Shown here in pieces: positions 2,583 through 49,250 of a stretch of DNA of 64,000 nt. How positions within the stretch are numbered: the first letter of the stretch is position 1; each line of letters opens with the position of its first letter. Location: positions 27,838,001 through 27,902,000 of the forward strand of contig OZ231126.1 of assembly GCA_965153355.1 (NCBI GenBank), in the 5' to 3' direction. Under the pieces are notes generated by a model that saw only the letters and a program-made list of their open reading frames with translations, was not told where the DNA came from and did no database searches. This DNA comes from Flaccisagitta enflata. Lineage: Eukaryota. A program made the position numbers and the translations under genes.

Positions 2583-4518
2583 AACCACTTAAGACTTGAG
2601 CAAATGAAGAAGCAAACATGAAAAAATGTGCACATTTAAAAAAAAAAAACAATCTAAACAAAAACAACGAAATGACTGAGCAGGAGCTGTTTCAGCTCAC
2701 CAAAACCTCATTTATTGAGTAAAAGTTTTTAAAAATCCATTAGTTATGCAAAAAAACATATGAGTCACTAGGATCAGAACATTTGAAATTTCCTTTTATA
2801 GAATTACAGTTTAAAATCGTAACACTTTTTGAACAAATTACGTAAAAAAATCAAAACGTTCAATCTTATGACTTATGACTTTCTTGACTTTTAATGCTCT
2901 TTCAAAGAGATAGTCAAGAAATGGGTTGGAATTTGCCCAGACCAGCATGATTGTGATCACACCCCCATGCCATAAATGGTTTCACAGAAACAGTTACCAA
3001 AAAATTGATATCCCAGCTCAAGGAGTTTGGTTGGAGTCTGTCTCCACTTAGACTGCATGAGGTGCATTTGGAGGATTTTTGCCCTCTTTGGCACAAAAGT
3101 TAACCCCCCCTTTCCTCTGTTGCTGCAAGATAAACCCTGCTGAAAAATGTCTTTGACTGCACTGGTGTTGTGGACCAAAGTTCAAAGCTGCTTCAAAGGT
3201 TGACTGGTAATCAGCCAAGTTGACAGAGCCACCTTTCACTTTGGACTTCAAGGAAGCTGAACTACTTGCCATCAAAGAGAAATACCTCATTACCCATGCC
3301 ACACACAGTGCAGTGGAAAGGGCCATCATCTGTCTCTGAGGCTTCTGCTGCTGTGGTTGGACAAGAAGCTAGGGAAGGTTTCATCTCAGAATGATGAATG
3401 AGATTATTGAAAATAGTAAATGAGGTCTTGGTGATTTTGCACAAATCCTGCTCATTTACTTTTTTACCTTGATTGCATTTTATTTTCTTTATGACTTGTT
3501 ACTTAGGTCTTGGTGATCTAGCACAGAACGCGCTCAGTTATTAATCTTTACAATTTCTTTTCAATCTAATTTTCAATTTAAATTGTTCAATGTTTATTAC
3601 TATTTATTTTTGCCTTAGTGGTTTATATTTTTACCTCATCACCTAATTGTGCATTTAAGGGTACTTTAGGTGCTTTAAAGGTGATTTTACATTTTTGTCC
3701 GCTTTTGATGGAATTGCCTTAGTGATTAAAGATTTTGTCAAATTGGTTTCTAGTTTGACCATGAAGCCCTACCCATATTTGTGTAGGTGTTAACATTGAT
3801 TTGAGAGAAAAAAAACCAAATAAACTCTGAAAAAAAAACAGAAAAAAATTAAGTAAAACACCCATGCCAGGTTGCAAGTCCTGGAGGAAGAAGCTTGAGC
3901 ACTGATTTTTGCAATTTTTATTGATTTTGCCCTTTTTTGCCTTTTTTTGCAAATATTCTATAGATAAAAAATGTTATTTTTTAACATACAAGGGAAAGGA
4001 ATCTTAGAATAACAAGAATACTGATTTAAACTAACATCTTCAGAATAATCAGGAACAATATTTTCACACAACAGGCTGAACAATTTTATCCATTTTTAAA
4101 GATTTCTGCAATTTCTTTGATTTTTTCTTATTATTGGCTCAATGGCATCATGTGTAAAGCTCTGAAAATGAGAAAAATCTTGCATAAAAAGCCTAATTAT
4201 TACCATAAATGGTAAGGGTAAGGCAAAAATACAGAAATGAATGTTTTGTAGTGTCCTGATGGCTACTACCAATGGCCTCTATCTTGTCAATTTTCGCGAT
4301 TTTTTTCAATTTTCGCAATTTTCGCCGATTGCATACCTCATTTTTTATCAAAAATGGATTATTTTTCCTTAAAAGGGAGATACCCAAAAAATTTTCTAAC
4401 CTTTTCTACACAAAACCAACCCCCAGATTCCAGAGTTCCATAAGGAATTTCCAAAATCAACCCTGTATGACCCCCCCTAGTGTACGCGGTACTGAAGTTA
4501 GAAGAAAAAACCACACAC

Positions 4519-5865
4519 CTTCGTTTTGTTCCGCCTGCGCCGGTCGCGAAGGATAAGTGGATCCACTGGGATTATTTTGTTCGAAAAGTTTCTTCATTCT
4601 TTCCGCGGCTTCGTAATACGTGGCGCAAGATTGGATGAATTTCTCTCGGTCATCGAGTGGGGCCGTGGTGGCCACTTGACGAAATGCCGGCTGACCTTGT
4701 CGCGGTTGTGGGTTCCACGTCGCTTGACGGCCGTACCTCATCGACGTTCCACTTCCAGTGGCTGTGCCTCCAATGTCGGTGCTGTATCCAATATCGCTGA
4801 AGCCGGCGTCGCCTGGCATACCGGCGGTTGCGCCGCCGCCGCCGCCACCGTCATTGGCCGGAAAACCGGCAGCTGGGAATCCCGCGTTACCGGCGGCTGG
4901 GAATCCGGTGTTTCCACTTGCCGGGAATCCCGCGTTACCACTAGCCGGAAACCCGGCGTTGTAATCCGTCCCGGCGCCGGGATTATAATCGGCGGATCCG
5001 TAGTTGGGATAAGAGGTTTGGTAGGATGGATAAGATGGATACGACGGGTATGTAGGAGCTGAGGAAAAGGCGTACATCTTTTGCATGCTAGACCAGTAGT
5101 CGTACCAAGTACCGCACATTTGAACAAAGCGAGGGTCTAAAGGACGCGTCGTCGTTGGCGGACCGGAAGGCGCCGGAAATCCGACGGAAGGATTAAATCC
5201 CGGCTGAGGCGCCGGCGCTCCTTGTTGCGGGTTAAACGCCGGTGGAGGAGGAGGAGGTGGAGGATTTCCGGCGCCCATCGGCAGATTCATAGGAGGCAAA
5301 GGTGGGATATCGCCGTTTTGAGGATTCGTAGGAGGCAGAGGTGGAGGGTCGCCGGATTGGGGATTCATACCCGGCAGAGGCGGGACACCGCCTCCTCCCA
5401 ACGGGATTCCAGGTGGGAAATCCGGGAAAGCCGGCGTGGGAATGGGATCGTCCATTCCCGGAGGCGGATCGGCAGATTCGCCGAAATTGGCGCCCGTTTG
5501 TCGCTTCTTCCGGTAGTAAGGATAATAGGAGTTGGAACTGCCGCTTGGTTCGCTCGCCATCAAATAACCCGAGTAAGCCGTGCGCCAATTGTACGGACAG
5601 TTGTATTTGCCCGGAATGACGAGATGCGTGGATGTGCGGAAGAACAAGCAGACGGCGCACGGGACCGCGTTGCCGTTAAAGTCCTTCGATTCGTCGACGC
5701 CGTCGTACTTGGCCCGGTACGTTCCGAGAATATCCGAACGCCGATCGACTTGATATTCCACCCGGAAAATCTGAGTATACCGATTTTGTTTGCCCGGGTC
5801 GAATCGACCGTATGTAGGATTGTTCGGGAGACAAAGATGTTTGTTTACCGATGATTTCACGCCGT
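4519..5865 (-). CDS. nested antisense gene exon 2: C4-like core plus Pro/Gly/Tyr-rich insert
   Basis: actcag|AC...GAAG|gtgtgt, phase 1-1. Motifs HLCLP, VEY, VPCAVC and VIPGKYNCPYNWRTAYSGYLMA are typical of this domain family. Confidence 0.9.
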
Positions 5866-5968
5866 CTGAGTTGTGGTGTCGTATGTGTTATGGAAGGGGA
5901 GGGTAGGGGGGTTTCAGGTGAATGATTAGATGTTAAGATGCCCTGGTTGTTGAAAGGATGCCCTAGTA

Positions 5969-10837: not shown

Positions 10838-11208
10838 TACTCGCATTTCCGCCTTTGCCCACCGCCCCCTCCTCCGTCCGCGATCTTATCACCCCGTGTG
10901 GCTAGTTTTCCCCTTCGAAGCTCATTTCTTTGAATCGAGTGGTGCTTATCTTGTCGCCTGGTTTACATTTGTATGTTATGCGTCACGATCGATTGAATGA
11001 TCTCGTTTTGTGACTACTGGACTGGGAATAACCGCGTTTTATCAGGGTCGACAGTCGCAGAATTTATCGGGGCTTTTCAGCTTTTCAGCTTTTTCCATTT
11101 TTCTGTTTTTTCTTTTCTTCGCGTATGAAAGGCAAATCGACAACCAAGGAAATCTTTACTCATATTGGATTTTTTTTGTTCCTCTTTTTTCCCCCTCATT
11201 GTTTTCAG

Positions 11209-11296
11209 CGAATTGAATTTTAATACATCTGCGAATTTGACGGATCGAGTAATCGATGAAGCCCTCGAGGCCTTAGACAAAAGTCATTCAAAGTTG
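11209..11296 (+). CDS. CARMIL: CARMIL exon (end of HD domain)
   Basis: ttttcag|C...AAGTTG|gtaagt, phase 2-0. SELNFNTSANLTDRVIDEALEALDKSHSKL resembles CARMIL1 [30 protein letters not shown]. Confidence 0.9.
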
Positions 11297-12048
11297 GTAA
11301 GTATTCCGAATACTAAAAGAACGCATGTAAAAATTCATTGCACATTTAAAAGTTTGTTTTCTTTTTCCAAAGCTCGACCAAAAAAATGCTTGTACTAAAA
11401 TTTGTAGCCTGTATGTTTCGCATGTTGGGCTTAACGATGATGGAATAGTAGTTACATATTAAACAAGGTCATTAGACCTAAGTCGCGTGCGTCGGTACTC
11501 TCAAAAAAAGGCAGGCAGGCAGACAGACAGACAAACATTTTTTTTTTCAAAAAGACATTTGGAATGGCTGCCTACTCCTCAAATTTCCTTCTCTCCCATT
11601 CAGAAACATTAAAAACGCTTTAAAAAGCCTGTAAAACAGTTTTGTGACGGACCGACCGACCGACGGACCGACTGACTGACCGACCTAAAAGTGGCTTACA
11701 GAGTCGCGTAGCACGCGACTAAAAATCCATAATATTTTCCCTGAGTGCGACCGTAAAATTATTTATAGTATGTATGTTTCGGTTGTTTCGTATGCTGGGC
11801 TTGACGACGATGTTCGTAAAGGTGGTAGTGCCGAAAAAGTCTTGTTCATGCTCTGGTAGCTTATCATTCTCTTACATCATATCATTACGGTTGAAATAAA
11901 GACGCACAAGGTATGATCATTCTTTTTTTATCGCTACAGTCGGTTGTATGTGTTTAGGGACTCCAACGCACCTCTAATCATGAGCGGTCGTGTCTGTCCG
12001 TTGTTTGGTTGATCTGTCCGTCACACTAACATTATGGCGCGCCTACTA

Positions 12049-14869: not shown

Positions 14870-15650
14870 GTATACAAGCGTTAAAGCTCCACAAAACTTC
14901 ATGAGATTGCCGTGGGATGATCCATCACTCACATGATAGTGTAGCACTTTCTTTTTTGTTTTGATGTTTCACGTGATTTCCCACGATATTTCAAGCATCA
15001 TTCTCTCGAGCTCTCAACTTTTGATAGCATAAAAATTTTAAGATGATTTGCCGTGACACAGCTTTTGCGCCGTTCGTCTGTGGACCTATTTGCTGGATGG
15101 GGTAGTCGGGTCGGGTTGATGACTTAGGAATTGGTTTTCCGATTCGAAGCCTCACCCAGCGATAAAGCCAGAAATTTCATTGATTTGCACCACAATGAAT
15201 AACTGCGGTGATATTTTACACTCTCGTGGACCCCTACCGCGCCGCGCCGACCGCCGTGTTCTCTCCGGTTTCGCACATTAGGTTTCCCACCATCTTTCTC
15301 TCTTTCTCTCTCTCTCTTTCTCTCTTTCTCTCTTTCTCTCTCTCTTTCTCCTCATTTCTCATTAACTGTGCCGATTTTTCTGTCTTGTCCTCTTTTTCAC
15401 GATTGGAAATTTTCCTCGAGTCACCGCACTTCATGTCTATCATCAGAGCTCTCCCTGAGTTCAAACGTCATCTTACCTTATTTTTTCCCACGCCTTTGTT
15501 TCTCTCTTTTTTTTTTAACTTATCCGTTCTACCATTTATAACAATCCAACAATAACAACGACAACAACCTTAAAGAAACGAACGGTAACCGGATTCTGGA
15601 AGTCTTTTCGGCGTCGTCCCGCCCGTTGCCACGCCTCTGATCACGCTCAG

Positions 15651-16883
15651 TCATCTCACGCCCTCTTGCATTCCACCTCTTCCTCTTCTCGTTCTTCGTC
15701 ATCATTCTCACTCGACGCCGGCGGCGGCGGTGGCGGCGGCGGCGTTTCCAACAGCGCCGCTCTCGACGCCGCTTCGCCCATCGTCCATTTCTCGGCTTTT
15801 CCTCGTCTTCTCAAGCAGAAAATGAGAAAGGCCGAAAGTCCTTTGAGAGTCAAATCGGCGATAGGAGGAACCGCCACTGCGGCTAAAGCAGGAGCAGAAG
15901 CGGCAGTTACAACATCAATCGAAGCAGCAGCAAGTGCAACTACACAGGCTCTCTCATCTAACCAAGCCGCTCCTCCTCCACCACCTTTGTCTAGTAAGAA
16001 TGATTCCCCTTTGGTCGTTCGGCATTTGCTGCCAGGCTTACCGGCCGATGGGATACTTCCGTATGTCATGGATCGCAGCGTCTCTTTCACGCTCGGTCGG
16101 TCGCGACATCGACGCTCTTCTAACGCCGTCCCATCCGCCGCCGCCGCCGCTTCTGGTTCCACTCTACCTATTCGAGATGAAGGTGGCCTTTCCCGCGCTT
16201 TCAGCGTTCAAAAGATTCACCTTCGACCTTTGCCGCCTACTCCCGCACCCACGCCGGTATCCTCCGGCAGAAGCGAATCGGCGAAAAGTCGCGAATCCGG
16301 CGGCATTTCAGCTCCTTCGCGAAATTCTACATCCCACGATTCACCAACGACATGGAGGGAAGAAAATGCCACCGAGAAGCGCGGCCCACTTCCGGTTACG
16401 CCTCATTCTTGCCGACGCGTGTTGATGAAGGCCGTCAAAAATTGCCGGAAAAACAACAACAACAACGGCACCTACAAGCGCGAAAGAATGTCCAGGTCCG
16501 AGGACTGTTTGGATTCGAAATTGAGAATGGAGGACAAGGCCAAGGCGGCGGTCAAGGGCTGGCCACTGGATGAGTCTGTCGTGAACAGCCGCGAAGGGAA
16601 CGCAGAAACTTATCGCGAAAGACGATCAAGCATCGACGAGCTGACTTATTATTCCACGTGGTGCGTCGTGCGGAGAAGTGGGAAAAAAGAATTTGGTTCT
16701 CGTGTCTGTTTGCGTCCGCGATCCATGGACGTTGCTCTTTTGTTAAAACGGAGTTCCGGGTCACCGATGCTGCTGCCATCTTCGAGCGGAGATCGGGAAA
16801 AATGTTCCTTGGACCATAGAGGAAAATTTTACGTCATGAAGCGCACTCCGTCGCAAGAGTCGATAGAACGGTGTGATCGCAAA
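15651..16883 (+). CDS. large low-complexity exon (~411 aa), possibly an alternative CARMIL tail exon
   Basis: ORF 15666-16892 extends to a phase-0 acceptor (ctgatcacgctcag|) and ends at AAA|gtgagt. GC-rich, Ser/Ala/Arg/Pro-rich. The 5' boundary is uncertain; it could instead start at the ATG at 15822. Confidence 0.55.
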
Positions 16884-16977
16884 GTGAGTTGAGTTTAAGA
16901 AAAGATGAGAAAAAAATTGTACTCAGTCATGATGAATGATGATGCAATAATTGTACCGTATTTTATGATACAATCAT

Positions 16978-43096: not shown

Positions 43097-43815
43097 CTTA
43101 ATGTTTAGCTCACTTTTTTGCATCATAGGTAGGGTAAAGAAGTAGACTAAAGATTTCAAATATTTTCCCCTCTCAACTAGCTGAGAGGCTTTGTTACGGA
43201 AAAGCTTTGACTTAGGAATAGTCTTGAGGAAAATAGGTAAGCAAAACAAGAAGAAAACCAAACTTTGAAATTTTTCTCTCAACTAGCTGAGAGTCTCGAG
43301 TAACAAATAGACTTGTACAGGGAAATGACTTGATTCTGGAATACTATTATAGTGTGAGCATGTCGCCCACTGTTAATGAACAGCTTTTTCTATGTTTTAC
43401 AATATTTTTCTTTGGTTATGAACATTGCGTATTGCCACTTGGGGCATTCAGTGGTTCTACTTGTGATTCTATCTAATTGTTGTTTGCTCATTCTTCGATT
43501 GTTCAATCATTCTAAGTTCTAACTGTCTACATCCGCTCACGCCAAAGTGGATCGAGAGAAGCGACCGTTATTTTTACTCCTCTTTCGATTTATCGAATCT
43601 TCATCGGGCATCTCGAATCTTTTCGAAAAGTGAAATTTTAATGGGAGGGGTTTTAAGAGTCACTAAACGCGAGGCAACATGTGGGTGAAGAAAGTGGGGC
43701 TCTTCAATGCTGTGGTTGGTTCTTTCAAACGACTCATCGCCCCTTATTGGCTCACCTTCTTTGTAATTTAATAAAATGAAGGGGACAGGAAGAGAAAAGG
43801 AAATAAAGGAATCAT

Positions 43816-43821
<6 letters not shown>

Positions 43822-43905
<84 letters not shown>

Positions 43906-44157
43906 CAGACATGGACAGACATGGACAGACATGGACAGACATGGACAGACATGGACAGACATGGACAGACATGGACAGACATGGACAGACATGGACAGAC
44001 ATTGACAGACATTGACAGACATTGACAGACAGATGCAGATAGTGACACACAGAAAGAAATACAGACAGAGCCATTGGTAGACAGAGCTGAGATACAGAGA
44101 GAAACCTTGACACGGATGGACTGACCGAGAAACGGGGAGGGACCCACTGTAAGTCAA

Positions 44158-44246
<89 letters not shown>
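43822..44246. repeat. (GA)n tracts flanking a 10-bp (ATGGACAGAC)n array
   Basis: (GA)n 43822-43900 and 44161-44246; decamer array 43901-44030. Confidence 0.95.
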
Positions 44247-44250
<4 letters not shown>

Positions 44251-44604
44251 GAAGAAGAAGAAGAAGAGAGAAAAGACGAGATATGGAAAGAAAGCGAGTG
44301 GATGAATTTCAAAAACAACGAAGGCATCTACAGTTTGGTCTCTTTTTTTCTGGATAAGGGGAAATAGTTTCCCTTTCTCTCTCGTTCCTTGCCAAGATTT
44401 TACTGACCGGATTAGTCATCCTTGCCAAGCCAGAATCTGAAATTGTTTTTCTCCCCTGCTGAACTTGAATCAATCTTCGACTTAAGACTTTGTTTTTGAG
44501 TTTTAATGATATCGACCTTAAGAAAAAAAATAAAATCTTCAATCAATCCTAAAACTCTAATTTTTCTTCGTTTGTCATTCTCTCGCTCAATCTCCGCACC
44601 CGGC

Positions 44605-44636
<32 letters not shown>

Positions 44637-45196
44637 CACACACACACACACGGGAAAGAGTCTCCGATAATGTTCTTGAATTTCATCCGGAATTTAGTAC
44701 TTCAGTCCCGGATGTCGTTTCTTTTGCTACAGCAGTGGGATTGCAGCTGGATGAGGAACGGTCGCGTATGACGTCATCCTCTTCGCATATTCCATGGCAT
44801 CTCGCCCCTTTCTATGAACCCAAATCGACCGTTGATCTAAATTTTTCATCGCCTTTTGAAATCACCGGGTTGCACGCATATTTACCATGCGGGCTGTGAA
44901 GAAGCCCCCATATCCCAATAGAAAAACCACTGTAATGAAAAAAGGATTCTGATGACGCAATAAACAATAACAACAGACTGTTTATCATGCCCGGTGGGAG
45001 GGTCGGTCATACAAGTAATCTTCACTTTAATGCGGAAGCATTTTGATGCGAGACGCAAGGAAAACAAACAAGCTAACACTAGCTAAACAAAAAAGTAAAC
45101 AAATTGAAACAGCTAAGAAAGCAACAAAAGTAAACCAAGAAGCTCCGAACGAGTCTACCACAACCGACATTATTAGTCCTCATCTCGTACGTGAGA

Positions 45197-46140
45197 ATGA
45201 CGCCGTATCAACCCCCACGCTTCCGACGTTTTCATGCCTCATTTCTTGCCATATTCGTGTATATTTTATCGTCGAGACATTCAACTCTGGCGGCTCGCTT
45301 CATTCACACTGCCATGCCGAAAGGAGCGCCGCGCGTGACGTTCACTTGCGACTCTTCCTCTTGGATCAAAGAGGATTTGAAGAAAGTGGACACGGTGATT
45401 TCTCTCGGCACTCAATTGGCCGCCGACGTCCCGGGAGGCGTGGACAAATACCGCCTCGCCCGAGATGGCAAAGAGTTGACGGTGCAAAACCTGGTCGAGG
45501 AAGACTCGGGCGTTTTCAAGTGTAAAAACTATAAATGCTCTTTGACGGTGGCCCGGAATCCCGAGTGTAAACCCGTGAAAGTTACGTTTCAAGAAGGCAA
45601 AGAACAAACTCTGACTTGCGGCGACATTTTCGTTAATCCCGGCGCCACTTCCGCTTCCCACGCGGCCGCGGCGCCGCGCGTCGATTGGCTTCTTGACGAC
45701 GCAATCTTGCTGTCCGAGGAACCAACCGAATATATCGCCGCCGCCGCAGCCAACGCCAAAGCGGCGTCGCCCGCGGCCAACTCCGGCGCCGCGGATGAGG
45801 ATGAAACGGGCGCCACTTCCGCCCGCAGCACCGCCGCCGAGACGTACGCCGTCGACTTCCGGTTCGATCCCAAATTCACACACAATGGCAAAAGACTCTC
45901 CTGCGTGTTGGAATACTCGCATTGGAACGCGTCCTTTCCTAAACCTTCCTGTGGAATCGATAAACTGGACGTAAAGTTTGAACCGCGTATCGAATGCCCT
46001 GAAATTCAGTATTTGAATGAAAACAATTCTCGACACGAGGCCTTTTGCGAGATACTCGGCAATCCACGGCCCTCGCAAGAATCCATTTTTTGGAAGGTGA
46101 AAGGAGATAGCCGTCGATTCTACGTCAAAAGTGATGACAG
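45197..46140 (+). CDS. Ig-superfamily type I membrane protein, exon 1 (signal-like region, Ig1, Ig2, half of Ig3)
   Basis: Hydrophobic FLAIFVYIL near the N-terminus. VTFTC..W...ELTVQNLVEEDSGVFKC (I-set-like), TLTC..W...HNGKRLSC (C2-like), FCEILGNPRP..IFW. Donor AG|gtaaaa, phase 2. Confidence 0.85.
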
Positions 46141-46558
46141 GTAAAAAAGTTTTTTAGTCGCGTGCTACACAAACTTTTAAAAGGTGTTTTAAATGTTTTA
46201 GGGGTCGGTCACAAAGTTGTTTAAAAGGCATTTCAAACTTTTAAAAGGTGTTTTAAATGTTTTAGGGTATCAATAAGAACTTGTTGGCTAATTGAAAGGT
46301 CATTTGGAAAACTTTAGTCTGTCTGCCTGTCTGTTTATCCAACGTTTTGTGAAAATGCCGACGCACGCGACTTAGGTCTAATGACCTTGTTTAAAGGCGT
46401 GCGCAAGAGTGCTGAAGAAAAAAACGGGACTATTTCTTTTAAAAAAAGGAAGTCATTTGATGGACAACAAAATTAGTTCAGTTATTTTACTACATCTTTG
46501 CCCATCTGTTATCTCCTAATGGAACCGTTACAACCCTTTTGTCACTCTCATTATTCAG

Positions 46559-46955
46559 GCAAAGACAAGCGGTCAAAGATTTGCCTTACGGCATTCGATC
46601 TTCCCTTTTTCTGAATCAAGATTTAATCAACAAGAATTTCACGATCAACGTCCCCTTTGCCGGAAAGATTCTGACGCGGGATGTGGCGCCAATTCTCGTT
46701 TCCGGTCCTTATCTCACTTGTCCGCGATCCATGCGGCTCGTCAGACGCGATAACAAAGTGGAAATTGGCTGCGAGATCAGAACGGAGCCTCTGATCCCGG
46801 CGAATAATATCACCTGGTCCGTAAAGGGTGAGAAATCCCTTGAGCAAAATGGAGGACAAATGGAAAAAACGTCCTATGGGCAAAATATTGTCATGCTTTT
46901 TGATCTCACGAAGCAAGTAGAACGGAATGATGAGGAAATCAAGATTTCAGTTCAG
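46559..46955 (+). CDS. IgSF protein exon 2 (rest of Ig3, Ig4)
   Basis: attcag|G...CAG|gtatac, phase 2-0. VEIGCEIRTEP..NITW. Confidence 0.85.
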
Positions 46956-47064
46956 GTATACGACACAGTAGAGCAAATTTATATGGCGATGTTTTGGGCT
47001 TTATCATGAATATTTGCCTCACTTTCTTATTTTAAAGTAACTACACCGCTTATTGTTTTAACAG

Positions 47065-47389
47065 GTGACCGGGATATTTGTATCGGCGAAAAAAAGTGTG
47101 TCCATCATACTTAGAGATGCCGCGTCGGTGGAGCAAACGATCAGCGATATAAATGATTGGGTGAACCAGAATGCCGGGTTGTTGTTATTATCCGGCGCTC
47201 TGTTCTTAATGGCCCTCCTCACTTTTGTGGTCATAGTGGTGGCTTGTAGGAAAGGGCTTTTGTGTAGCCCACCTCAGCAGCGGAAATACAACCGACCGAT
47301 GTCACACAATGCGAGAATACCTTCAGCTACGCTGCTTGACGCCCTCAATGATCTTGAATACAAGGCTGCTAGGGGCACAAACACAGCAG
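47065..47389 (+). CDS. IgSF protein exon 3 (transmembrane helix)
   Basis: aacag|GTG...GCAG|gtattg, phase 0-1. LLLLSGALFLMALLTFVVIVVA followed by a CRK stop-transfer sequence. Confidence 0.85.
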
Positions 47390-47473
47390 GTATTGGCGTT
47401 GTCGGGAATGACTTGCATAGTTTCAGATGCCTCCCATAATGCAGATTTCAAATACACGTTCTCTCCCTCTCAG

Positions 47474-47826
47474 GTAACCGAAGATCTTCGTTTACTTTCT
47501 ATGGTGGCGGAGGAGGTGGTGCTACTGGGACAGTGAGCTCAGCATCTCAACCCTTGACCATTGGTCGCGATTCTGTTGACAACTTTGAATGGAGTCATGG
47601 TTTCTCAAAATTGGCTAATGCACTAATTGCCAAAGACACTGATCAAGATGGATACATTCAGTCGCAAGATGCACTGGCTACTGTAAAAACTTACTCCCAA
47701 ATATACAAGCTCAAACTCGATGACGGCATCATCAACAATGCAATGATGACCTGCTCCAACGGTGCTCATGTTGATGTGGAAAGTCTCACGAGATTACTTG
47801 CAAATGCCCATGATACCCAAGCTTAA
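47474..47826 (+). CDS. IgSF protein exon 4 (cytoplasmic, EF-hand-like motif, stop)
   Basis: ctctcag|GT, phase 1. Contains the DTDQDGYIQSQD loop and TAA at 47824-47826. The four exons total 2019 nt = 672 aa + stop. Confidence 0.8.
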
Positions 47827-48635
47827 AGGGGCGGTTTATGACATTTACCAAAGCACCGTTACTTAACCAATATTGTTCACACTTTAAAGACTGTTGAATA
47901 TTTAGTACACCTTTTAGCCATGTGAAATCAAAATCATCAGATGTGAAGCTGTGAACTGACTCATAGTTGTGATACAGTTCCATTCACCTCATCGGTGATA
48001 TGGAAATACCCATAACCAGGCCTGTATATAATTGATATCAAAGGGTCTGGAGATGGGGAAGGAAATCAAAGAGGGAAAAAAAAGAAAATTCTGGGAAAAA
48101 ACAACTTTTGACAGTACCAAATCATAAAAACTAGTTAGTAAAACACAATTTAACACTATCTAAACCTTAACTACACTGTTTTATAGTTTTAAGGGGAAGA
48201 AAATCATAGATTTTAAAACGCAACATGTCGCGGGGAAGAAAATCAAAGGCGGGGGGGGAAATCAAAAGCGACTCAATTATATACACCCCTGCCCATTATC
48301 TATCCAACTGCGCCAGTTGACTGGCAGGCTGTCACGGTATGAAAGGAGTCATCTCTGCTGTCAAGTATTGCTTCTAAGCATAATCTTCTGAGGGCCGAGG
48401 TAAAACACCACGGATTCAAGCTTATTGTTGCTGGGGTTATGTCTGTATTTGTATAGGCTTGCTGTCTTGTGCATTTTTTCTTTTTTTTTTCATTTTCATG
48501 CTACATTGTACGACAATCATTTGATATTGATTGTTGAAAAATACTAATAGCCAGAGCTTCTGTATTTTTGGGTTCATCACGTTCATTTTGAGATTTAAGT
48601 GTGTGCATGTAAGTGTCATGGGGTACTAGATAGAA

Positions 48636-49250
48636 CACCATCCGTTCTAACTACCGCCAGGTGGTTTTCAGTATTACTCTGGATTTTCCGCTTGTTTTCA
48701 CTCAATATGGACCTCCTGAACATGAATCCAGCTTCAAAAAAATCTTTCTTGTGGCGCCTTTTGAAAAAAATCCAAAATTGATAGTTTTTTCTCTTATTTT
48801 GAAGTCAGAATTTTTAAGGTTGTTGGAAGATCTTTTTAGATAGCATATCTGAATTCCTGATAAAATTTCCTTTCATTTGATAGGTCGCACTATATATTTT
48901 TGAAAAGAAATAAAATTTTTATTTTTTAATCCACCGTTACAAAAAGGAACGGTGAGTAAAAAATTGAAAATTTGATCTCTTTTGAAAAATATATAGTGCG
49001 ACCTATCAAATGAAAGGAAATTTCATCAGGAATTCAAATATGCTATCTAAAAAGGTTTTCTAACAACCCTCTAAAACCTGGGTGCATTATAAGATGAAAA
49101 ATTATCAATTTTTGATTTTTTTCAAAAAGCGCCACAAGAAAGATTTCTTTGAAGCCGGATCCTAGTTCAGGAAGTCTATCCTGAGTAAATACAAGCGGAA
49201 AATTCAGAGTAATACTATAAACCACCTGGCGGTAGTTTGGACGGATGGTG
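48636..49250. mobile_element. Chapaev/CMC-like palindromic MITE
   Basis: AGAA|CACCATCCGT...ACGGATGGTG|AGAA (CAC ends, 4-bp TSD). Arms pair over ~290 bp. Confidence 0.85.

Follow-up and report, generated by a model that had tools for sequence, protein, structure and literature searches.

Gene structure, transcription and selection

The DNA analysed here, referred to as the window, is a stretch of 64,000 nucleotides of Flaccisagitta enflata (assembly GCA_965153355.1, contig OZ231126.1, positions 27,838,001 to 27,902,000 of the forward strand), eukaryotic in character, with about 40% G+C, microsatellites and short GT..AG introns. The subject of this work is a gene at 45197–47826 of the window, on the + strand, for which an original prediction, drawn from the letters alone, had proposed an immunoglobulin (Ig)-superfamily receptor with a cytoplasmic EF-hand-like domain. 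Considering all the evidence gathered, it is rather likely that the product is a type I membrane protein of the Ig superfamily (IgSF), in which an Ig ectodomain and one transmembrane (TM) helix are combined with a cytoplasmic EF-hand pair of the C1orf87 type, acting as a cation-dependent output.

The start codon is the ATG at 45197 (no in-frame ATG occurs upstream of it in the open frame, which begins at 45134), and the stop codon occupies 47824–47826. The four exons, separated by three GT..AG introns, provide 2019 coding bases that are free of stops and specify a product of 672 aa. The splice sites read CAG/gtaaaa...attcag/G in intron 1, CAG/gtatac...aacag/G in intron 2 and CAG/gtattg...ctcag/G in intron 3. 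The exon coordinates and the length of the product are identical to those of the original prediction, and all the features named in it were confirmed in the sequence at their positions, including those of the tail (RRSS, glycine linker, helix-loop-helix motif and CSNGAHVDVES; Table 1).

The transcription of the gene was studied with RNA libraries mapped on 44900–48300: contigs of three runs (X1, X2 and X3), which are assembled marine metatranscriptomes of one study, and one run of raw reads (X7). The joints were reported 3 bases leftward, and a cut 3 bases further on also fits and gives GT..AG. The joints 46140/46559 and 47389/47474 were present in contigs of X1 and X2, and the joint 46955/47065 in contigs of X1, X2 and X3. 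Exon 4 is thus joined to the Ig exons in contigs of two runs, at the very junction on which the proposed receptor depended. A single X1 contig of 1188 nt spans exons 2, 3 and 4 and continues to 48035, differing from the window at one position, in exon 2, and matching exons 3 and 4 exactly. The contig depth over the introns was zero or nearly so, apart from 46268–46495 in intron 1.

The exon 4 product was searched against 5.8 billion proteins, and three were returned (P0005, P0006 and P0007). Two of them, P0006 (656 aa, on a contig of 3245 nt) and P0007 (619 aa, on a contig of 4155 nt), can be aligned with the spliced product from one end to the other (72% and 67% identity, respectively), with zero gaps at all three exon borders. 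Both begin at the same place as the window protein, each with a signal-like peptide of its own. Concerning selection, 31 of the 33 coding differences found in the RNA-library contigs are synonymous, versus 23% expected for random changes, and in exon 4 all ten differences lie at third codon positions and are synonymous. The spliced contigs, together with the colinear relatives and the excess of synonymous differences, indicate an intact gene that is transcribed, occurs in RNA libraries and is subject to purifying selection.

Table 1. Positions of the features of the gene (window coordinates or residues of the 672-aa product), with their content or basis.
Feature	Position	Strand	Content or basis
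5′ untranslated region (UTR), minimum extent	45004..45196	+	run X1 RNA-library contig over 45004-45161
Exon 1	45197..46140	+	start codon, signal-like peptide, Ig-like domains 1 and 2, first half of Ig-like domain 3
Signal-like peptide	aa 1-33 = 45197-45295	+	by eye
Intron 1	46141..46558	+	418 nt; codon split after second base
Exon 2	46559..46955	+	second half of Ig-like domain 3 and Ig-like domain 4
Intron 2	46956..47064	+	109 nt, phase 0
Exon 3	47065..47389	+	membrane-proximal stalk, TM helix, basic stop-transfer RK, conserved juxtamembrane segment SATLLDALNDLEYKAARG
Intron 3	47390..47473	+	84 nt, phase 1
Exon 4	47474..47826	+	cytoplasmic linker (RRSS, SFTFY, Gly run), DUF5580_C / EF-hand-pair domain, stop
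RRSS	aa 558-561 = 47479-47490	+	sequence
Gly run	aa 566-571	+	sequence
DUF5580_C / predicted EF-hand-pair domain	47590-47799	+	Pfam PF20743, AlphaFold2
Predicted EF loop 1 DTDQDGYIQSQD	aa 610-621 = 47635..47670	+	sequence, AlphaFold2 model
Predicted EF loop 2 TCSNGAHVDVES	aa 648-659 = 47749..47784	+	non-canonical; family signature SNG..VD; model strand 98-100
CSNGAHVDVES	aa 650-660	+	sequence
3′ UTR, minimum extent	47827..48035	+	X1 and X2 RNA-library contigs extend to 48035

Ectodomain and membrane topology

The topology of the product was judged by hydropathy and inspection. The N-terminus contains basic residues followed by the hydrophobic run ASFLAIFVYIL, which is signal-like by eye. The only strong hydrophobic segment is the TM helix of aa 484–508 (47173–47247), with a Kyte–Doolittle 19-residue mean of 2.8, directly followed by RK. 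Both the signal-like region and the single TM helix had been foreseen in the original prediction. With such a signal-like N-terminus, one TM helix and RK after it, the product is taken to be a type I single-pass membrane protein. The ectodomain would comprise about 450 residues and be followed by a short stalk, and its four N-x-S/T sites are all N-terminal of the TM helix.

The Ig character of each domain was assessed by Pfam scans of the whole proteins. The clearest case is domain 1 (aa ~38–120), with C51, W56, C109 and the sequence DSGVFKC109; in the window protein it gave matches to Ig_3, I-set and V-set over aa 49–110, all below the cut-offs, and in P0007 it reached 34.8 bits with Ig_3, versus a cut-off of 30. 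Domain 2 (aa ~121–255) has C141, W164 and C236, and an Ala-rich insert that is missing in P0007; only a weak C2-set_2 match was obtained for it, in P0006 (E 0.007). Domain 3, split by intron 1, displays the sequence FC284EILGNPRP..IFW299 and gave only weak matches to kappa constant domains in a comparison with Protein Data Bank (PDB) sequences (E 0.002–0.016). Domain 4 (aa ~361–447) has C386 and W400 and no F-strand cysteine; its equivalent in P0006 (residues 357–446) scored 24.6 bits with I-set, versus a cut-off of 23.7. The set of Cys, Trp and Cys is therefore complete in domains 1 and 2, while domains 3 (C284/W299) and 4 (C386/W400) are without the second Cys. Among PDB sequences, the best matches of the ectodomain were antibody light chains, with NCAM2 at rank 20, and a Foldseek search that started from a full-length, but poor, AlphaFold2 model of P0006 hit Ig V domains for the most part, together with OPCML and the Nav beta2 subunit (E about 0.007–0.02).

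The count of about four Ig-like domains in the original prediction stands in part: two of them (1 and 4) rise above a Pfam cut-off, in the relatives only, and domains 2 and 3 give weak signals, with the window protein itself below the cut-offs. Four Ig-like domains are probably a reasonable description, with two of them supported at a curated cut-off, and this in relatives only. It could be argued that the 5′ end or the domain count is wrong, and that the same tail belongs to an Ig-poor receptor or to one with a non-Ig beta-sandwich ectodomain, for instance with an FN3- or cadherin-like middle. The weak signals of domains 2 and 3, the missing second cysteine of domains 3 and 4, and the stretch of P0006 left unmodelled by AlphaFold2 (residues 139–361) agree with such an idea; however, no other domain family scored there, at E up to 10 in the window protein or up to 0.01 in the relatives, and the shared start position and signal-like peptides of the relatives speak for the 5′ end as given. 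Moreover, the spacing of Cys and Trp (C284...W299 and C386...W400) and the sequence FCEILGNPRP..IFW are typical of Ig domains of the I-set/C2 kind. A non-Ig ectodomain was accordingly considered very unlikely, and an Ig ectodomain was retained.

A separate observation concerns codon 114 (window position 45537), which in this assembly encodes an odd extra cysteine (Cys114) beside C109. One RNA-library contig has Tyr at this codon (G>A), as do P0006 and P0007, so Cys114 looks like an allele of this assembly or an error.

The cytoplasmic tail and its predicted fold

The tail contains the peptides of the SFTFY region and the LLDALNDLEYKAA helix in its linker, followed by the terminal domain. The exon 4 product matched the Pfam family PF20743 (DUF5580_C) with 26.2 bits versus a cut-off of 24.1 (E 8.6e-06), residues 39–108 of the product being aligned on positions 3–72 of the 75 of the profile. 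The same family scored 25.8 bits in P0007 and 23.2 bits, just under the cut-off, in P0006. The original description of the tail as EF-hand-like is therefore sustained, with the correction that it belongs to an existing, uncharacterised Pfam family. The two other domains of the DUF5580 series, PF17743 (DUF5580 N) and PF20742 (middle, DUF5580 M), went unmatched in every exon when E values up to 10 were admitted, and likewise in P0006 and P0007 with an E limit of 0.01. Since these N and M domains are absent, and a TM helix and Ig-like domains are found in their place, the gene is not an orthologue of C1orf87.

A model of the tail was obtained with AlphaFold2 from an alignment of 19 rows, with a predicted local distance difference test score (pLDDT) of 89–93 over residues 41–110. 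The model elements are helix 31–53, loop 54–59, strand 60–62, helix 63–76, helix 83–93, strand 98–100 and helix 101–115; that is, the arrangement of helix, loop, strand and helix occurs twice, with a short antiparallel bridge between the two loops, as in the topology of an EF-hand pair. In this model, DTDQDGYIQSQD occupies the loop, strand and helix-start places of a canonical 12-residue EF loop, with its DTDQDG located where such a loop sits.

The model was compared with known structures by several means. With Foldseek against the PDB, at least 40 of the 47 listed matches were EF-hand proteins by title; the top one was the Mg2+-bound N-domain of CaBP1 (E 0.05, probability 0.99), and Tcb2, calpain-3, sorcin, troponin C, calmodulins and CDPK1 were among the others. 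With VIA-align against 48,161 chains, the best Z was 8.2, reached by the CDPK3 calmodulin-like domain and 4gft among the tied chains, and many EF-hand domains followed at Z 6–7.6, interspersed with unrelated helical proteins. When the family profile was run on PDB sequences, 15 chains appeared at E up to 10; the names of 14 of them denote calcium-binding or EF-hand proteins, and the list is headed by NCS-1 (E 0.017) and calmodulin (E 0.029), aligned on the loop. The ESM Atlas, interrogated with the tail, gave mostly rows of EF-hand clusters with a best score of 0.88, to be taken as no more than a lead; nothing usable came out of it for the TM-plus-tail part of P0006. A search by sequence found no solved structure for any C1orf87-type protein. 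According to a 2026 preprint (10.64898/2026.09.11.750891), the mouse DUF5580_C domain recovers an EF-hand/recoverin fold. Altogether, the prediction that the tail folds as an EF-hand pair is supported by these models and comparisons.

Relatives of the tail and of the whole architecture

A phmmer search of the tail against 1.84 billion cluster representatives produced 20 matches at E up to 0.001, of which 17 carry the tail domain. The other three were rejected as spurious: P0022 and P0026 are bacterial-repeat-like (P0026 has Big_9 and cadherin-like Pfam domains, and P0022 was judged from its sequence), and P0021 is a protein of 1077 aa with no aligned stretch. The aligned members have in common a D.D.DGY loop, an SY..IY.L helix and a (C/S/T)SNG..VD.E.LL signature. 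One member, P0024 (624 aa), carries the N, M and C domains of DUF5580 and is on this account a C1orf87-type protein.

A TM helix upstream of the domain was found in three of the 17 sequences (P0009, P0011 and P0012). Most of the remaining matches are short fragments, and P0010 and P0014 have no TM helix in their approximately 100 upstream residues. In addition, the colinearity of P0030, a 277-aa member of the cluster of P0011, with P0006 starts at Ig domain 4 (IGCDVYVNP...NITW) and extends over the stalk, TM helix and linker as far as the C-terminus, with 28% identity (E 5e-28). A metagenome scan gave a single locus, L001, with an open reading frame (ORF; 230–919) containing a TM helix and the tail; it was run with a narrower alignment, a first one having been dropped as too diverse. 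In all six membrane members, 107–119 aa separate the start of the TM helix from loop 1, and the linker motif [ST]F.F[YIL] is present in the window protein, P0009, P0011 and P0012. The marine TM-plus-tail relatives show 34–49% identity in the domain. Other full-length relatives, beyond P0006 and P0007, were not found by a search with P0006 or by a profile search of longer proteins, an absence that is weak evidence because of word crowding.

With at least four further divergent marine TM-plus-tail sequences and a conserved spacing, the fusion represents a small family and not a one-off. The lineage-specific fusion of the original prediction can thus be kept only loosely, as TM-plus-tail relatives occur in several other marine sequences. 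A rival reading would be an accidental or recent capture of the tail exon, without function, giving a neutral fusion limited to one lineage. The linker and the domain do lie in one terminal exon behind a phase-1 intron, as expected after exon shuffling, and only two full-length relatives emerged from 5.8 billion proteins. On the other hand, the ten synonymous differences out of ten in exon 4 are at odds with neutrality; the tail is the best conserved part of the protein, with 83–92% identity to P0005–P0007 versus 67–72% overall for P0006 and P0007; and the distant relatives retain the TM helix, the tail and the spacing between them. Neutral capture is already contradicted by these conservation data and was regarded as extremely unlikely.

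Two relatives deserve a comment of their own. P0005 (249 aa) and P0037 (134 aa) read intron-like sequence into the tail exon (...LSLSGNRRSS and ...PPYLGNRRSS, respectively), and P0005 also runs beyond the usual stop. They look like calls from unspliced or genomic contigs, which shows that relatives, like the window, have an open frame ahead of the exon 4 acceptor.

Loop chemistry

Loop 1 (D-T-D-Q-D-G-Y-I-Q-S-Q-D) comes close to a canonical loop: Asp occupies positions 1, 3, 5 and 12, Gly position 6 and Ile position 8, and the 12-residue EF ligand pattern is followed, with Asp rather than Glu at position 12. Asp at this position lowers the affinity for Ca2+ and favours Mg2+; EF-1 of CaBP1, which is also the top fold match of the tail, is an example of such a loop. 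Across 12 aligned relatives, D1, D3, D5 and G6 are invariant or nearly so, and of the 16 family sequences in which the loop can be read, 13 have Glu or Asp at position 12.

The occurrence of the motif was evaluated with a loose EF-loop pattern and with a strict PROSITE-style pattern. The loose pattern occurs once in the protein, and it appeared in 57 of 20000 shuffles of it; thus, the EF motif by itself is unlikely to arise by chance, and it is also conserved in the relatives. In loop 2 (T-C-S-N-G-A-H-V-D-V-E-S), S94, N95, G96, V99 and D100 (tail numbering) are invariant or nearly so in the aligned relatives. As this loop is among the best-conserved parts of the family, it points to a conserved surface.

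The main rival interpretation of the tail has to be weighed at this point, namely that it is a "defunct" EF-hand pair, a metal-free module for constitutive docking. Its partner might be cytoskeletal or ciliary, a suggestion based on the C1orf87 proteins of motile-ciliated cells, to which the named relatives of the tail are confined. Several data are in line with a defunct pair. Loop 2 is without ligands, loop 1 has Asp at position 12 in the window protein and either Val or Thr there in P0013–P0015, and no Pfam EF-hand model reaches E 10 on the tail of the window protein. Besides loop 1, the most conserved elements are the non-ligand SNG..VD and the SY..IY.L helix, as would be expected of a conserved binding surface. 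Moreover, the fold matches include, by title, the defunct EF-hand domain of calcium vector protein, the C-terminal EF-hand domains of Nav1.2 and Nav1.5, and apo-calmodulin complexes; 4gft (Z 8.2), the myosin A tail-interacting protein (MTIP), would count as a further metal-free or non-binding module. However, the invariance of D1, D3, D5 and G6 in 12 relatives is hard to explain without metal binding, the predominance of Glu or Asp at position 12 goes in the same direction, and the predicted geometry of the loop is canonical. A pair devoid of metal was thus held as a possible but rather unlikely solution. As judged from its residues, loop 1 would bind metal with somewhat better than even chances, and a cation-binding pair is the solution followed below.

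Interpretation and significance

The three points on which the original interpretation could have failed came out in its favour, and the interpretation is supported in this respect: the tail exon is joined to the Ig exons, the tail is predicted to fold as an EF-hand pair, and the combination of Ig domains, TM helix and EF-hand matched no characterised family, either in the searches for full-length relatives or in the literature. In the latter, no characterised protein was found with an Ig ectodomain, a TM helix and a cytoplasmic EF-hand pair. The protein was therefore rated as a new domain architecture made from known domains. An origin by exon shuffling from a C1orf87-like gene would fit the location of the domain in one terminal exon behind a phase-1 intron.

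Concerning the way in which such a receptor may work, the ectodomain would bind a ligand on another cell or in the matrix, and the EF-hand pair, which lies about 110 residues inward of the membrane, at the end of the cytoplasmic tail, would be the cytoplasmic output module. Loop 1 (D-x-D-x-D-G-Y-I-x-x-x-D) would bind a divalent cation, either Ca2+ or, given the Asp at position 12, Mg2+ at rest and Ca2+ at high levels. Loop 2, which has no acidic ligand at positions 1 or 12, would be a non-binding structural partner. The occupancy of the cation site may alter the grip of the pair on a helical partner, for which the candidates are a cytoskeletal protein and the conserved linker of the receptor itself, through its SF.F[YIL] motif or its juxtamembrane helix. 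In this manner, adhesion or signalling would be coupled to cytosolic calcium.

A number of observations weigh against the proposal of an Ig receptor with a cation-dependent tail. With respect to the ectodomain, the Ig matches of the window's own exons are all under the Pfam cut-offs (at best, Ig_3 with 19.8 bits versus 30, and ig with 14.3 versus 21.8), the full-length AlphaFold2 model of P0006 has a mean pLDDT of 44.9, with the middle part mentioned above missing, and a profile-to-profile comparison of the four putative Ig domains gave only a weak match between domains 3 and 4 (E 0.024). With respect to the transcripts, the contigs are assembled and come from one metatranscriptome study, in which carry-over of DNA cannot be excluded in general, although an intron-less joint cannot derive from genomic DNA; in the raw-read run X7, of which about 6 in 100 were read, a single read was found, which is no evidence either way. 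With respect to the tail, none of the Pfam EF-hand models EF-hand_1, 5, 6, 7 and 8 matched it in the window protein at E up to 10, while the relative P0016 showed EF-hand_1 at E 0.006, below the cut-off. Foldseek of the tail against the PDB gave nothing below E 0.001, the best VIA-align Z of 8.2 is in a range common for small helical models, as the tool itself remarks, and a capsid chain of PBCV-1 is among the chains tied at that score. As to the loops, loop 2 fails the ligand pattern, the Val or Thr at position 12 of P0013–P0015 means that some members cannot use a bidentate ligand, and the strict PROSITE-style pattern was found in only one of 17 family sequences, the window protein failing it by an Ala after position 12.

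IgSF adhesion receptors normally sense calcium indirectly, via calmodulin or other adaptors. A receptor whose own cytoplasmic tail held an EF-hand pair would couple cell contact to calcium signals in a compact way. The orphan domain DUF5580_C now appears in a second, very different context, and such a context often reveals what a domain binds. As the gene is small and the tail, of about 80 residues, should express easily, the calcium question is directly testable. A bolder extension, considered distinctly unlikely, is that the protein may be the founding full-length example of an undescribed family of single-pass receptors, with an Ig ectodomain connected directly to a C1orf87-type EF-hand pair, in which cytosolic calcium gates adhesion or signalling without calmodulin, perhaps as a calcium-dependent tether between the ciliary or cell membrane and the cytoskeleton. 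The idea of a ciliary tether derives from the only named relatives of the tail being proteins of motile-ciliated cells. Were this extension true, it would also offer a first functional handle on DUF5580_C and C1orf87.

Surroundings of the gene

No second copy of the gene was found within the window by tblastn with eight family proteins. When 100 six-frame ORFs were compared with Pfam, only a CARMIL_C exon and two low-complexity matches scored, so the neighbourhood says nothing about function. The CARMIL_C match lies in the open frame 11129–11395 (+), with 25.0 bits versus a cut-off of 25 (E 1.8e-05); this frame is probably an exon of a CARMIL/LRRC16-like gene for an actin-capping regulator, located upstream on the same strand. 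Pfam matched neither of two other long open frames, 4460–5887 (−; 476 aa) and 15519–16889 (+; 457 aa). Pro, Gly and PSY repeats abound in the first, which lies in a locally G+C-rich stretch, and Ser and Ala in the second; they may be genes of low-complexity secreted or structural proteins.

Several repeats were observed in the gene and around it. Just upstream, at 43600–44700, there are long (GA)n/(TC)n microsatellite arrays, separated by a short tandem unit, which yield spurious long open frames on both strands. Intron 1 contains a perfect direct repeat of 34 nt at 46170–46203 and 46234–46267, 64 nt apart. At 46268–46495, also in intron 1, and at 48092–48300, past the 3′ UTR, the summed depth of X1 and X2 contigs was 50–730, versus 2–20 on the exons, with many loose contig ends and odd joints. 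Both are probably dispersed transcribed repeats, similar to short interspersed nuclear elements (SINE) or miniature inverted-repeat transposable elements (MITE), shared with other loci or organisms. Further downstream, at 48886–49000, there is a hairpin with arms of 53 nt, 85% complementary, and a loop of 9 nt. An Rfam scan over 44000–49000 gave only a match of this hairpin to the miRNA family MIR6224, far below threshold (30 bits versus a gathering score of 171), and a MITE-like inverted repeat is the probable nature of the hairpin.

Comparison with known systems

The closest named relatives of the tail belong to the C1orf87 family (alias CREF). The tail matches the model of their C-terminal domain, PF20743, above its cut-off; P0024, the C1orf87-like protein mentioned above, was recovered by phmmer with a library-wide E of 1.3e-4 and aligned by tblastn with 32% identity over 71 aa; and the D.D..GY loop, the SY..IY.L helix and the CSNG signature are shared. 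In contrast, C1orf87-type proteins are soluble and carry DUF5580 N and M, neither of which is present in the window protein, where the domain is placed behind an Ig ectodomain and a TM helix. C1orf87 is itself uncharacterised; a published source lists it among poorly known proteins located in motile-ciliated cells.

The leading fold matches of the tail are lobes of the calmodulin superfamily, such as the N-domain of CaBP1 (2k7b), a CDPK calmodulin-like domain (3hzt), troponin C and the penta-EF-hand domains of calpains. They have in common with the predicted tail the two helix-loop-helix units, bridged by a short two-stranded sheet, and the Asp at positions 1, 3 and 5, Gly at 6 and hydrophobic residue at 8 of loop 1. 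They differ from it in sequence (7–22% identity in the top rows, and no Pfam EF-hand match for the tail) and in that the tail has Asp at position 12, a loop 2 without the ligand set and an unusually long entering helix of 23 residues. Unlike the window protein, they are soluble proteins or domains of soluble enzymes.

On the extracellular side, the resemblance is to IgSF cell adhesion molecules (CAMs), such as NCAM2 (2wim), OPCML/IgLON (5uv6) and Nav beta2 (5feb), which appear among the weak sequence and fold matches of the ectodomain. Their layout, in which a signal peptide and Ig-like domains in tandem precede a single TM helix and a short cytoplasmic tail, is also the one predicted for the window protein. 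These matches are generic, and orthology to any named CAM was not found. The tails of known CAMs contain short linear motifs, or kinase or phosphatase domains, and are not known to have an EF-hand pair.

Finally, the comparison can be extended to STIM1, polycystin-2 and NOX5/DUOX. The EF-hand of STIM faces the lumen of the endoplasmic reticulum (ER) and is paired with a SAM domain, and polycystin-2 and NOX5/DUOX are multi-pass proteins; none of them is known to have an Ig ectodomain or a pair of the DUF5580_C type. What they share with the receptor proposed here is the strategy of a membrane protein with a built-in EF-hand sensor, instead of recruited calmodulin.

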